Below are positions 8,741 through 13,749 of a stretch of 64,000 bases of DNA, in pieces. The notes under the pieces were generated by a model. The model saw nothing but the letters and a program-made list of their open reading frames with translations, did no database searches and was not told the DNA's origin. Made by a program: the position numbers and the translations under genes. Every line of letters begins with the position of its first letter. Within the stretch, counting starts at the first letter, position 1. The DNA lies in the IMG/VR virus record IMGVR_UViG_3300023181_000002, positions 1 through 64,000 of that record; one strand, 5' to 3'. The DNA is from a virus.

Positions 8741-9085
8741 ATGATAGCTAAATCTCCTGAAGAAAAACAAGCTTTGAAACTGGCAAAGCAAAAACATAAC
8801 GCTGCGGTAAAGGAATACGAAGCAAAGAAAATTCAACCCAAAGAATCCCCTAAGTTTACATTTCAGAAAGATGGGATTCTTCAATGTGAACATTTACTGC
8901 CGGATGATTACCCTGTTCACGCTGATTTCCTTTACGTGATCGATGATGAAGGTGGTAAAGTGATCAGATCCGATGTTTTTGGCACGGTAAAGAAGCTTAA
9001 ACAAGATTTAAGGAACTTCTATAAATACAAAGCTTTGAATGTTTACAGTTGCGATTATTACGCAAGAAGAAAACCAATAGAATAA
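8741..9085 (+). CDS. Hypothetical early protein
   Basis: AAACAAACTTACTC leader immediately upstream. Confidence 0.75.
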   Translation: MIAKSPEEKQALKLAKQKHNAAVKEYEAKKIQPKESPKFTFQKDGILQCEHLLPDDYPVHADFLYVIDDEGGKVIRSDVFGTVKKLKQDLRNFYKYKALNVYSCDYYARRKPIE

Positions 9086-9099
9086 TCCGCTTCAAGTTT

Positions 9100-9402
9100 C
9101 AACTGTTCGAAAATCCTGAACAGTTGCCAATTTTTCCCCGTTCTTTCTCATACTGAATTTCCCTGGTATCTGTAAGTCGCGCGAACCGTGCCGCTGCTCA
9201 GGGATGGTCAAATAATATATTTCTGCTTCTTTTGGGCACTGCTCAATATATTTGGAAGGTATAAAACTTCCGCGCTCTCTAAGGGCGTTTTAGTGACTGT
9301 AAACACTAATAATATCACCCGGTATAAAACGGATGGGAAAGTAGAATTCTGCCTGTGATCTAGCGTAAAGATCGGGAGCTGAGCACGCATGCTTGGGCAG
9401 GC
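9100..9402 (+). ncRNA. Putative structured non-coding RNA
   Basis: GC-richer intergenic gap with at least 9 nested stems, e.g. ggaag/cttcc, ttagtg/cactaa, gcctg/caggc enclosing tgatct/agatcg and ctgagca/tgcttgg; loop GGTATAAAAC twice. Confidence 0.5.
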
Positions 9403-9414
9403 GCTAAACTTTAA

Positions 9415-9762
9415 ATGACTGATACAATGGAATTGTTGCTGTTAAAAATGCACCTGACACAAAATGGTTGGGAGAAAACAAAAAGAGTATATGAGGTTAT
9501 AGAAAAGCCTTCTACCTACATCTTCAGAAATTCCCGGGTTAATAAAAACAAAATAATGAAACCTGATAATATTTTTCGAAAGACGCATCATGTTTTTAGG
9601 CTCGAATGTTATTGTTTGCCGGATCAGGAAGTTGAATGTTTTGATGAGATGTACAAGATTATTAAACAAGATTTGGATCAGGTAATTTCTGAAGTTGAGG
9701 CGATAAAAATTTTTCAACAGGTTCAAATAAAAGATATCCCTGTAATTGTAAAAGAAATATAA
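9415..9762 (+). CDS. Hypothetical protein
   Basis: ORF in operon run upstream of viperin. Confidence 0.65.
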   Translation: MTDTMELLLLKMHLTQNGWEKTKRVYEVIEKPSTYIFRNSRVNKNKIMKPDNIFRKTHHVFRLECYCLPDQEVECFDEMYKIIKQDLDQVISEVEAIKIFQQVQIKDIPVIVKEI

Positions 9763-9923
9763 CTCATGTACCTCTTAATCATCCACTACCGGGGAAAATA
9801 TCCAACCTTAGGGATGTTCCCCAAAAAGAAGCTCAATGGGGCGATTGATCACGCTTACAAGAATGCTTCGAGAAACAAACGCTTTATTACTGGTTTCAGT
9901 TTTCATCTTTTAAATGATATTTT

Positions 9924-10100
9924 ATGAGCAACGCACTCGAAAATAAACTCCTACTGGAACAACACCTCTGGGATGAATCCCTTAAAGACGACTCCTCACG
10001 CGTGATCAAAACGGACACCGTGGAAGGATTCATTCAAGACAATGAAATCCGTATACGGGAACTTTTAAAGGTAAATGAAATCGCTAAATTGTATGTTTGA
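9924..10100 (+). CDS. Small hypothetical protein (58 aa) translationally coupled to viperin
   Basis: MSNALENKLL...KLYV*; its stop overlaps ATG 10093 (ATGTTTGA). Confidence 0.55.
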   Translation: MSNALENKLLLEQHLWDESLKDDSSRVIKTDTVEGFIQDNEIRIRELLKVNEIAKLYV

Positions 10101-10908
10101 AACAGCCTCTTTCCATATTGTCAAACCTTGCAACATGTCTTGTAAGTTTTGTTACGCCACCTTTCAGGATATGCGCCTTGATAGTCAAATCTCTTACCGG
10201 GATGCCTGTGTAATTTTAGATAAATTAAAACGGGCAGGACTCAAAAAGATCACCTTTGCAGGAGGAGAACCGATGCTGTATAAACCTATTATAAGTGTTA
10301 TAGAGCACGCCAAATCTATCGGGCTTACCACTTCTATCATCACAAACGGATCAATGCTTAATTTTGATAAGCTAACCCGTTTAAAGAAAACGCTTGACTG
10401 GATAGGGATTTCCATTGACAGCCTAGATAAAGAGACAAATCGTAAGATAGGCCGAAATTCAAAAAGACCTGTTAATTATTACAAACTGATTGAAGCGTTG
10501 CATGATTTCGATTTTAAGTTAAAGATTAATACCGTGGTAAATATCCACAACGAAAATGAAGACATGAACACTTTTATCAACTGGGCTAAACCTAACAGGT
10601 GGAAGATTTTCGATACACTGCGTGTAGAAGGGCAAAATGAGCTTCAATTTGAAGCGATAAAATCTTCAGAAGGTGCTTTTGACAGATTTATTGCCAGGCA
10701 CAATCACCCTTCAATCGTCCCTGAAAACAATGAAGCGATGACAGGCAGTTATTTACTAATTGACCCTCAAGGAAGACTTTTTGAGAACTCAAATGGCAAA
10801 CATACGTACTCAAGTAAATTACAGGATAACACTGTAGAAAAGTGTCTTTCAGAGATTAACCTGAACAGGGAAATGTTTGTAAAACGTGGCGGAATTTATA
10901 ACTGGTGA
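10093..10908 (+). CDS. Viperin-family radical SAM enzyme (prokaryotic viperin, pVip-like; alternative start 10075)
   Basis: SFH...CNMSCKFCYATF (CX3CX2C), KKITFAGGEPML, TSIITNGS, LDWIGISIDS, KINTVVN, RWKIF..L.VEGQN, VPENNEAMTGSYLLIDPQGR, C-terminal FVKRGGIYNW; colinear with viperin motifs. Confidence 0.9.
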   Translation: MFETASFHIVKPCNMSCKFCYATFQDMRLDSQISYRDACVILDKLKRAGLKKITFAGGEPMLYKPIISVIEHAKSIGLTTSIITNGSMLNFDKLTRLKKTLDWIGISIDSLDKETNRKIGRNSKRPVNYYKLIEALHDFDFKLKINTVVNIHNENEDMNTFINWAKPNRWKIFDTLRVEGQNELQFEAIKSSEGAFDRFIARHNHPSIVPENNEAMTGSYLLIDPQGRLFENSNGKHTYSSKLQDNTVEKCLSEINLNREMFVKRGGIYNW

Positions 10909-11630
10909 AAATATGACAACTATCTTACTGGAATCTACCGAGATTCTGCGCGATTCACTCGCTTTCGCAGCTTCTATCATACTGCTTTCTTTAGCGGTAG
11001 CACTTATTGTAGAAAATCGCAAACACGTCAGGCTATGGAAGAGGAAATAAGAGATACGATTAACCAATTGAAATCTGAAGGATTGTACCGCTACGCGAAG
11101 GCACTTGAGCACGATAACAGCAGCCTCGAGGAATTCCTTTTAATACTTAAACACGAAAGGAGTAAGATTGATAAAGCTATTGAAATAACAAGTAAGCAAA
11201 TTGAAAACTCTGTAAAATAATTAAAAATGGACATAGCATTAAAATGTAACGACATACAAATAGTGCCTGATGGGGTTTATTACATCATTGCCTCTCTGAA
11301 CATCGATGAAGCGCATTTCTTTGAAGCGTTAGACCTTGAAGAGGTTTTAAACTTTCACGGAGATGGTAAATTTCTGGACCTGATCGGAGAAGACCGCGTA
11401 AGGGAATATTTCAATCTTAAAGGAATAGACGAATGAAACCTCTATTCCGCACCCTGCGCCTATTATCGCTCCTTCTAACCCTGTGCACCCTCTGCGGAAT
11501 AATACTCTTCCCAGAGCACCAAAAAGGGCTTACAATCGGGATGATATTATTCTCCGCAGGAATGGTACTCTCGGACTTTGGGGTTCGGGAGGATTGAATA
11601 ATTATATTTTTAAATATTAGAAAGCTGTAT

Positions 11631-11746
11631 TATATTTGATTAATCATTCGTGTTGCGGCGTTATGATAAAAATAGTCAAATAAAGATATTCATAGCTTTG
11701 TCCGAGTACTGCCCGCAACCAGGAAAGGACAAAGCTATTTTGCTTT
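11631..11746 (+). promoter_or_regulatory. Promoter plus leader pseudoknot/terminator element upstream of HNH gene
   Basis: TATATTTG 11631-38; gttgcgg 11652-58 complementary to loop ccgcaac 11713-19; 12-bp stem 11692-11703 / 11727-38 followed by T-run. Confidence 0.65.
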
Positions 11747-11753
11747 TTAAATC

Positions 11754-12776
11754 ATGAAAGAAACAGTTTCAAAAGAGAATTGGGAGATTTACATTAAACA
11801 CTTATTTTCTCATCTCGAAGAGAGGCTTGATCAAGTCGTTAGTAATAATTATGCAGCAGCCAGATTTATTGAATTCTTAAACGAAAACATCGAATGTGTT
11901 GAAGTATTAAATGATCGGTATTTGCAAATCAATACAGAGAGTTTCTTTTACGAAACAGATGTAGAGATAGGCGATTTGTACAGAGCATTGACTAACAAGG
12001 AGCTGTCTGACACATTTAACCTTGTTAATTTTAATAATTACAAAATACTGATTCATAGATACGAATCTTTTGAATCTGCATTTGAGGCTGAAACTAAGAG
12101 AAAATATCAATTGTCCTTAAGATATACACAGCAACTATATGAACCAGAATGGCATGAAAAAAGGCTAGAGGTTTTTGCTTTATATGGTCGAAAATGTACT
12201 ACTTGTGGAACCGAAGACAAAATACAGGTTCATCACAAAACTTACATTGACGGACATCTTCCATGGGAATATGACCTAGACAATTTCACTCCTTTATGCC
12301 AGCGGTGCCACTCAGTTGTCCACAATAAATTAAGAGAGGAAAAACAAAAGGAGGCTAGGGAGTTAGAACCAAAAGAAATCAACTATAACACACCTGTTCA
12401 AAATAGAATAGTTAATGAAAAGTCGCGGTCAAAAGCTGAAATGTTTTTTGACATAATGTTTTTAGTCAAAGCACTTAAGGTTGAATTCTTAATATGTCTT
12501 TTCCCTTGTTTTTCCGAATGGAAGAGAGAAAATAAATGCTATGTGATAACAATAAAGGGCACATGGGAGAGATTTGAAGTAAGTAGGAAATCATTAGCTA
12601 ATTCAGCCTCTAGGATTAGAGATCACAGATGGGCAATGAGACATGGCGACCTTTACATTTTACATAAGAAAGAGTGGGATAGCAGAAAGATAGACGAGTT
12701 TTTGCCTAAAGAAGAGCCTTTTATTCCTTCACATTACAAAAAACCTAAACAAAATACGTATGGTAGATTTAAGTAA
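11754..12776 (+). CDS. HNH endonuclease domain protein
   Basis: W..KR..V....GRKCTTCG...IQVHHKTY....WEY.....LCQRCH. Confidence 0.8.
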   Translation: MKETVSKENWEIYIKHLFSHLEERLDQVVSNNYAAARFIEFLNENIECVEVLNDRYLQINTESFFYETDVEIGDLYRALTNKELSDTFNLVNFNNYKILIHRYESFESAFEAETKRKYQLSLRYTQQLYEPEWHEKRLEVFALYGRKCTTCGTEDKIQVHHKTYIDGHLPWEYDLDNFTPLCQRCHSVVHNKLREEKQKEARELEPKEINYNTPVQNRIVNEKSRSKAEMFFDIMFLVKALKVEFLICLFPCFSEWKRENKCYVITIKGTWERFEVSRKSLANSASRIRDHRWAMRHGDLYILHKKEWDSRKIDEFLPKEEPFIPSHYKKPKQNTYGRFK

Positions 12777-13284: not shown

Positions 13285-13749
13285 ATGAAACAATTAGAAA
13301 TGAAACATTTATCGCCGTATTTGCCTTATGGATTACAACTTTATGATTCCTATGACGATATGAATGTGAGCCTTAGAGGTCTTATTTTAGATGACACGGA
13401 ACCAGTAAAAGTATCTAAATTCTTTCATCTAATTAAAAGCAGGAAAATGGATGAAATAAAGCCAATCCTCCGCCCATTATCTGACTTAATAAAGGAAATT
13501 AATATAAATGGTGAAACAATGGCGCCATGTGACTATTTCGAATATGGAGATGAAAATCAGGATGAGATATTCCGAAACGCCAGCCGAGACTTAGAAACAA
13601 TTGGCAAGTATAATCTGCATCATGATATTCAATTTCAACCTAACGGAGTAATAGAAAAATTATTCGAATGGAAATTTGATATATTCGGTCTTATTGATCA
13701 CAACCTTGCAATAGATGTTAATACTTTACAAGAAAATCCTTACGCTTAA
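13285..13749 (+). CDS. Conserved Bacteroidota phage protein (PYLPYGL...KPILRPLSDL family)
   Basis: LSPYLPYGL, KPILRPLSDL..EI, FDIFGLI...LAID motifs. Confidence 0.7.
   Translation: MKQLEMKHLSPYLPYGLQLYDSYDDMNVSLRGLILDDTEPVKVSKFFHLIKSRKMDEIKPILRPLSDLIKEININGETMAPCDYFEYGDENQDEIFRNASRDLETIGKYNLHHDIQFQPNGVIEKLFEWKFDIFGLIDHNLAIDVNTLQENPYA

Follow-up and report, generated by a model that had tools for sequence, protein, structure and literature searches.

Viperin is a textbook antiviral effector common to bacteria and humans. Here we describe a viperin gene that resides in a virus. It occupies positions 10093..10908 (+ strand) of a 64,000-nucleotide stretch of DNA, referred to as the window, which represents bases 1-64000 of the 99,882-bp IMG/VR virus record IMGVR_UViG_3300023181_000002, and it encodes an intact viperin-family radical S-adenosylmethionine (SAM) enzyme of 271 amino acids (aa) followed by a TGA stop. 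The gene is a member of a phage-only branch of the family that evolves under purifying selection, phage-only being meant within what pattern-seeded locus scans could detect. Viperin identity and phage ownership, taken jointly, are in our view highly likely. The best explanation overall is that the gene is resident in an apparently virulent crAss-like phage and specifies a synthase of 3'-deoxy-3',4'-didehydro-nucleoside triphosphates (ddhNTPs) by which competitors would be excluded, and we give this explanation as a whole about an even chance of being correct.

Identification of a Viperin-Family Enzyme

Profile searches clearly placed the protein in the viperin family. It matched the NCBIfam model NF038283 (viperin_w_prok) with 280.1 bits at a cut-off of 180 (E 1.6e-83) and all three PADLOC models for prokaryotic viperins (pVips) with E values of 1e-78 to 1e-81 (best 1.4e-81), whereas the best non-viperin model, MoaA, reached 88 bits against its own cut-off of 284 and NirJ2 reached 78 bits. 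Pfam recognized generic Radical_SAM (83 bits) and Fer4_12 domains only. Solved viperins from mouse, Nematostella and Trichoderma aligned from residue 5 to the last residue of the protein (E 4e-47 to 1e-38). An AlphaFold2 model generated from 28 homologues (pLDDT 83.6, pTM 0.85) superposed on mouse viperin with bound CTP (6Q2P) and on 6Q2Q with a TM score (TMq) of 0.91 and on 9DFW with 0.89-0.90; across CTP- or UTP-bound viperins the score was 0.89-0.91, compared to 0.58-0.67 for MoaA. The model has the viperin fold, in which a C-terminal extension closes a partial TIM barrel. An identity as MoaA or NirJ was rejected, as both the profile scores and the fold fit fell far below those of the viperins.

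A sequence-only reading of the window had previously proposed an intact viperin with a colinear series of hallmarks, namely CNMSCKFC, KKITFAGGEP, ISIDS, KINTVVN, RWKIF, EGQN, ENNEAMTGSYLLID and a terminal KRGGIYNW, and all of these were found in that order. The cysteines of the radical SAM [4Fe-4S] motif, C13-x3-C17-x2-C20 (codons at 10129..10152, +), and the SAM-binding motif G57-G58-E59-P60 are invariant in 35 genes of the phage clade. Motifs specific for viperins beyond the radical SAM core (KINTVVN, RWK, GQN, SYL and RGGxYxW) are likewise present and are shared at ≥90% with 130 cellular pVips. The last of them, R265-G-G-I-Y-N-W271 (codons at 10885..10905, +), aligns with RGGIYDW of fungal 9DFW and 6B4C, and its residues R265, G267, Y269 and W271 are invariant within the phage clade and common to cellular pVips too. 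The viperin motif N-x-H in strand beta-1, by contrast, reads S6-F7-H8 here (codons at 10108..10116, +), with the His kept and the Asn replaced by Ser. Judged by its sequence and its predicted structure, the protein is a viperin on every criterion except the Asn of N-x-H, and the proposal of an intact viperin was borne out by the NF038283 and PADLOC scores, the end-to-end structural alignments and the TM score of 0.91.

Two start codons have to be considered. The ATG at 10093 is likelier than an alternative ATG upstream at 10075 (open reading frame (ORF) 10075..10908, +, 277 aa), because the resulting 271 aa equal the length of the database copy P0001 and several homologues start with the same residues, MFET. 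The favoured ATG lies within ATGTTTGA and creates an 8-nt overlap with the TGA stop (10098-10100) of a 58-aa ORF upstream.

Residence in a crAss-Like Phage Genome

The proposal that the gene is phage-encoded holds. The virus record carries direct terminal repeats (exact, 127 bp), is rated 100% complete by CheckV and encodes a large terminase, a portal, a tail fibre, a DnaB-type helicase and a sliding clamp. A protein of 1373 aa matches the Crassvirus muzzle family PF25731 with 215 bits, and, in a search of 50,697 GenBank phages, the closest terminase matches (22-24% identity) came from crAss-like phages. As in Crassvirales, the genome has a size of about 100 kb; it is organized in two opposed arms with a strand switch near 38 kb. 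Based on the muzzle protein and the terminase relatives, the virus is therefore classified as a distant crAss-like podovirus, its host presumably being a member of the Bacteroidota. A tyrosine integrase was not found in the phage genome, so the phage is apparently virulent.

Since the genome is a metagenome assembly, one might suspect a chimera in which host DNA was joined to a phage contig, or a recent capture without function. Several observations speak against this. The GC content of the viperin gene is 0.379 compared to 0.388 ± 0.023 for equal-sized windows of the same arm, and its trinucleotide profile lies at the 25th percentile of the distances within the arm. The gene begins within the upstream ORF, a terminal repeat closes the contig, and the branch recurs in four other terminal-repeat genomes. 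Its median dN/dS is 0.19. A near copy that might have served as source was not detected in cellular genomes (185,579 species genomes scanned). An artefact or dead passenger was accordingly rejected as very improbable.

Full-length viperins were not found in the reference collections of phages. Megablast of the locus against GenBank phages yielded zero matches, and tblastn against the 50,697 GenBank phage records yielded no full-length viperin, the partial matches (≤31% identity) corresponding to generic radical SAM/MoaA genes. PHROGs holds no viperin family, the best match being a generic radical SAM family (E 8e-14). A search for close relatives of the phage, in which the viperin site could be viewed, returned one contig with one shared gene. 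In the literature searched, in which subscription journals were thinly covered, no description of phage-encoded viperins was found.

A Phage-Restricted Branch of Viperins

The distribution of the gene was followed by locus scans seeded with short peptide patterns and kept to at most 80 loci, so that all counts given here are lower bounds; flanking ORFs were called mechanically. In IMG/VR, at least 14 viral contigs carry a viperin relative, 13 of them at 56-67% identity, within a range of 51-70% for the branch as a whole. Terminal repeats are present on four of these 13, and the terminal-repeat or complete carriers comprise genomes of 115, 56.7, 75.9 and 72 kb plus a 77.8-kb record rated complete. 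The sequence-only reading had called for a survey of phage contigs for orthologues in the same context: orthologues do exist, but their context differs. The flanks of the 13 other viral contigs have almost zero genes in common with the phage described here, and no neighbouring gene recurs beside viperin across 16 loci, apart from antisense shadow ORFs inside the viperin gene itself. The crAss muzzle protein was detected in two out of five other carriers and gave no match in the remaining three (G001, G004 and G006); the gene is therefore present in at least two kinds of phage. As far as can be read from these loci, the branch appears to move among unrelated phages as a lone stand-alone gene.

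None of the five other viperin phages contains an integrase above the cut-off. In one muzzle-positive carrier (record G005), a tyrosine-integrase-like ORF (L186, 15210-15734) located ~6 kb from viperin scored below threshold (24.3 bits, cut-off 27.1), and one integrase family also occurs among the metagenome flanks described below. Strict virulence need not hold for all carriers.

Cellular genomes gave a different picture. In the species genomes (one per species), only two loci above 60% identity were detected among the best 80 of 110 matches, and both lie on contigs of metagenome-assembled genomes (MAGs) that carry phage genes, a terminase and NinG in one case and a portal and a tail fibre in the other (L026 and L028). 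These contigs had been binned into Chitinophagaceae and Bacteroidota MAGs and also carry a PAPS-reductase-like gene. The remaining matches, again among the best 80 of 110, are mainly from Bacteroidota and show 37-46% identity.

The same division was observed in metagenomes (241 million records). All loci of ≥51% identity with a readable motif (21) carry S-x-H, whereas all loci of ≤45% (53) carry N-x-H. Flanking ORFs have a median length of 120 aa on 13 longer S-x-H contigs compared to 248 aa in 12 N-x-H loci, and 91 larger flanking ORFs of the S-x-H contigs match 128 PHROG families; portal, head morphogenesis, endolysin, RecT, Sak4 and primase are among them, as is one integrase. The flanks of these 13 contigs are of the phage type. 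In a collection of 5.8 billion proteins, S-x-H was found in 118 of the 120 best clusters at 90% identity. In a maximum-likelihood tree of 116 sequences, obtained by a quick search and rooted with a distant viral homologue rather than with MoaA or eukaryotic viperins, every S-x-H sequence falls on the same side of a long stem, whose length is 0.79 changes per site and whose approximate likelihood-ratio (SH-aLRT) support is 99.

One exception to the phage restriction was encountered. A copy on a Chitinophagaceae chromosome (L030:7983-8840, a 2.08-Mb MAG contig) nests inside the phage branch and is its only clearly cellular member, surrounded by housekeeping genes (GH20, QueA, MMPL, LptF/G and LptC). 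Its motif is G-L-H, and Arg169, Gly180, Tyr220 and the C-terminal RGGxYxW have been lost. The copy was probably captured from a phage and is either decaying or re-purposed.

Besides the branch, a second, unrelated kind of viperin-like gene was observed on a 24-kb IMG/VR contig (L019:9860-10858). This gene encodes 332 aa with 31% identity and the motif N-W-H, and falls far outside the S-x-H branch.

Motif Change, Fixed Differences and Selection

Comparison of 57 phage-branch sequences with the 130 cellular pVips demonstrated that S6 is present in 100% of the former, Asn occupies the same position in 99% of the latter, and H8 is common to both. S-x-H was found in 35 of 35 aligned phage-clade genes and in every viral locus of the branch. 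The S-F-H reading noticed earlier in the sequence is thus real, but it is no oddity of this gene; the Ser is branch-wide and, by sequence comparison, represents a synapomorphy of the phage branch. Altogether, 68 positions are common at ≥90% to the phage branch and the cellular pVips, including CxxxCxxC, GGEP, TNG, SxDS, KINTVVN, RWK, GQN, SYL and RGGxYxW, and nine are fixed differences (phage/cellular: E3/P, S6/N, Y21/F, Q32/H, Y63/C, I83/V, L222/M, L243/I and C251/A). Although pairwise identity among the 35 genes goes down to 46%, 61 residues are invariant, and the median dN/dS over 230 pairs with unsaturated dS is 0.19. The branch is under purifying selection.

The substrate pocket was inspected by alignment to 9DFW. 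In the beta-8 loop of the phage protein, Asn takes the place of mouse Cys314, and His replaces Lys319; we take the two mouse residues to fall on the NC and RK of 9DFW. The Asn form represents the "promiscuous" pocket of most prokaryotic viperins (Shomar et al.). In human viperin, the His of the N-x-H motif belongs to the nucleoside triphosphate (NTP) site, and its mutation narrows the substrate range.

These changes might indicate an altered chemistry, in that the S-x-H branch retains a viperin-like fold only and uses a deoxynucleoside triphosphate (dNTP), a nucleotide sugar or a signalling nucleotide, or forms another product. An Asn-to-Ser exchange that is fixed in the branch and near-absent elsewhere, eight more clade-specific positions and the long stem would fit this proposal, as would the location of the exchange, next to a His of the NTP site whose mutation alters the substrate range of human viperin. 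On the other hand, all conserved motifs shared with pVips are retained, RWK, the Tyr of SYL and RGGxYxW among them. Superposition of the model on NTP-bound viperins gives a TM score of 0.9, and no tailoring or partner enzyme is encoded beside the gene. We consider a changed chemistry quite improbable.

Possible Function during Infection

We infer the product of the enzyme, its time of expression and its target as follows. With its catalytic apparatus intact and maintained under purifying selection, the protein is most probably still a ddhNTP synthase, and its family membership makes ddhNTPs the likely product. The predicted enzyme would be a catalytically competent radical SAM nucleoside-triphosphate 3'-dehydratase that generates 3'-deoxy-3',4'-didehydro-NTP chain terminators from host NTPs during lytic infection. 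Termination of RNA chains by ddhNTPs is established, as is the block that viperins impose on T7 RNA polymerase in E. coli. In the infected cell, ddhNTPs might cripple the polymerases of competitors such as co-infecting phages and satellites, and transcription of the phage itself would have to tolerate the analogue. Since the carriers lack integrases, the enzyme must act in lytic growth, which argues against the usual logic of a prophage protecting its lysogen. A role in exclusion of competing phages or satellites, although the likeliest of the roles considered, appears possible rather than probable.

Several points weigh against a ddhNTP synthase directed at competitors. The Asn of N-x-H, present in 99% of cellular pVips, is Ser in all branch members with a readable motif, and eight further positions separate the clades (e.g., Q32/H, Y63/C and C251/A), so that the phage enzyme may have another substrate or chemistry. 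Arguments for competitor exclusion usually concern prophages, and the carriers here look virulent. If the phage needed a ddhNTP-sensitive RNA polymerase, the enzyme would be self-harming. Finally, the candidate promoter boxes belong to a motif at chance frequency, expression in lytic infection is a prediction, and product and target are putative. The sequence-only reading had put forward action on co-infecting phages that carry their own RNA polymerase or, alternatively, poisoning of nucleotide-signalling immunity. It held that the phage appears to use host-sigma promoters and may for this reason tolerate ddhNTPs, a premise that found no support: in the window, sigma-70-type sites were counted 34 times compared to 36.9 expected, and the Bacteroidota -7 box TAnnTTTG 65 times compared to 68 expected.

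An alternative target would be the host. In the case of host take-over, ddhNTPs would bring the synthesis of RNA or of RNA-primed DNA in the host to a stop, and a phage polymerase resistant to them, e.g., a crAss-type virion RNA polymerase, would continue. The crAss-like nature of the phage, the muzzle protein in two of the five other carriers and the giant cargo-type proteins that adjoin the muzzle gene are consistent with this, as crAss-like phages reportedly inject their own virion RNA polymerase. One of these giants, a 2628-aa protein encoded beside the muzzle gene and beyond the window (64652-72538 of its own genome, L005:652-8538, -), may be an ejected cargo protein. It contains Kinase-PolyVal (PF18762, 120 bits, residues 1043-1202) as sole Pfam domain and a HEFGH zincin motif at 1429; its DxDxD strings at 1940 and 2470 prove nothing about RNA polymerase. 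Sequence searches of the Protein Data Bank with the 2628-, 1373- and 1087-aa proteins gave zero matches. No RNA polymerase of any sort was recognized among the genome proteins examined, though one may still be present, and a T7-type RNA polymerase (PF00940) was detected neither here nor in the five other carriers, in a search that is weak because its control matched nowhere. Moreover, three carriers (G001, G004 and G006) gave no crAss muzzle match, and bacterial RNA polymerase seems to be fairly tolerant, since viperin expressed in E. coli reportedly blocks T7 RNA polymerase while growth of the host continues. Host take-over is accordingly given a small chance of being correct.

Another possibility is counter-defence. 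Nucleotides lacking the 3'-OH might act as dead-end substrates or inhibitors of the CD-NTases of cyclic oligonucleotide-based antiphage signalling systems (CBASS), of the cyclases of the pyrimidine cyclase system for antiphage resistance (Pycsar) and of oligoadenylate synthesis by Cas10 of type III CRISPR systems. The carriers are apparently virulent, the viperin gene lies among small orphan genes of a kind that is often anti-defence, and a phage-restricted branch with changes adjacent to the active site would be expected of a repurposed enzyme; in addition, a beta-8 loop of the promiscuous type would be able to take purine NTPs too. However, inhibition of such immune enzymes by ddhNTPs is argued from chemistry, and the compared loci revealed neither a conserved partner gene nor a link with host defence content. 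We regard counter-defence as unlikely, though less so than host take-over. Taken more broadly, what was an antiviral effector of cells may have become, in a virus-owned S-x-H lineage, a weapon of the virus that either poisons CBASS, Pycsar or type III CRISPR signalling or acts on a new substrate, which we consider rather unlikely.

Comparison with Cellular Viperins and Phage-Borne Defence Systems

The phage protein resembles pVips (NF038283, PADLOC pVip) in family, fold, radical SAM and C-terminal motifs, the beta-8 Asn, its size of ~270 aa and its stand-alone organization, the closest cellular relatives being Bacteroidota pVips with 37-46% identity (e.g., Lacinutrix mariniflava and Flammeovirga pacifica). 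Unlike these, it is encoded by a phage without a defence island or kinase and forms part of a branch of its own, set off by a long stem, by Ser for Asn and by eight further fixed differences. Thus, what marks cellular defence, i.e., a cell-encoded gene, a defence island and an adjacent or fused nucleotide kinase, was not found for the phage viperin. In agreement with the earlier observation that no defence island or partner kinase is located nearby, the neighbouring genes searched are nearly all orphans, and no nucleotide kinase of the Tmk or Cmk type was found in the whole genome. Because an apparently virulent phage encodes a separate branch without island or kinase, a role of this viperin in bacterial defence is doubtful.

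Eukaryotic viperin (RSAD2; 6Q2P, 5VSL, 7N7H, 7N7I and 9DFW) shares 33-36% identity with the phage protein over the whole catalytic domain and, in the case of mouse, a TMq of 0.91. Nevertheless, the phage protein reaches 150.6 bits on TIGR04278, which has a cut-off of 450, and it is devoid of the long N-terminal extension, as the Pfam match already starts at residue 19 of the 277-aa ORF. It further differs from mouse viperin in that Cys314 and Lys319, which select CTP and whose placement we assume as above, are Asn and His. MoaA and other phage radical SAM enzymes (QueE-like, NrdG) have the radical SAM core in common with it; for MoaA, the 88 bits and the model TM score of 0.58-0.67 given above mark the difference.

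Defence systems carried by phages (Rousset et al. 2022; bioRxiv 10.1101/2024.10.26.620412) are similar in that a single accessory gene of an antiviral family is surrounded by neighbours that vary by phage. Those systems are mostly found in temperate phages and protect lysogens with ordinary cellular versions, whereas the viperin carriers lack integrases and their viperins form a phage-only branch. Viperin is not listed in the survey of phage-borne defence systems.

A large conserved viperin branch in the genomes of phages, most of them without integrase, reverses the expected ownership of this effector and implies that chain-terminator nucleotides are useful to viruses too, whether to fend off rivals, to counter host immunity or to shut off the host. 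The natural S-x-H and N-x-H variants represent a ready set for studying substrate choice of viperins. Furthermore, phage genes may be mistaken for host immunity when defence systems are called automatically in viromes and MAGs, since both "cellular" matches above 60% identity (L026 and L028) were phage contigs binned into MAGs. If the reading as a viral weapon is true, with poisoning of immunity or a new substrate, it would add a new class of chemistry by which phages counter defence or take over the host.

Gene Neighbourhood and Transcription Signals

The viperin gene is part of a run of small orphan genes (9415-11597) in the replication-side arm. The upstream 58-aa ORF (9924..10100, +), whose stop overlaps the viperin start, is an orphan without PHROG match. 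Five nt past the viperin stop follows the ATG of a 45-aa ORF with a hydrophobic stretch (10913..11050, +), which again has no PHROG match. Among the neighbours searched, family matches were restricted to an HNH nuclease gene downstream of the run (11754-12776) and one PHROG of unknown function (13285-13749).

A candidate Bacteroidota-type -7 box, TATATTTG, is located at 9247..9254 (+) in the 330-nt gap preceding the run and represents a weak lead. The preceding gene (8741-9085) is closed by a terminator-like hairpin at 9100..9126 (+); such sites were not enriched over shuffled sequences, and the terminator scan of the window remained at chance level. The next TATATTTG box at 11631..11638 (+), ahead of the HNH nuclease gene, probably marks the downstream limit of the viperin transcription unit.

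Mobile elements were observed beyond the window. Two transposase genes of phrog_506 are located at 72600-73766 (L005:8600-9766, E 2e-125) and 95805-96839 (L006:11805-12839, E 2e-72) of the phage genome, both on the + strand, and one of them sits on the opposite strand amid the giant cargo-type genes. An HNH endonuclease gene of phrog_374 (78640-79782, L005:14640-15782, -; E 2e-65) separates the muzzle gene from the gene for the 1087-aa cargo-type protein. Three other viral loci (L007, L014 and L016) likewise have relatives of this endonuclease near their viperin gene, which suggests a homing nuclease that is mobile and common to these phages.

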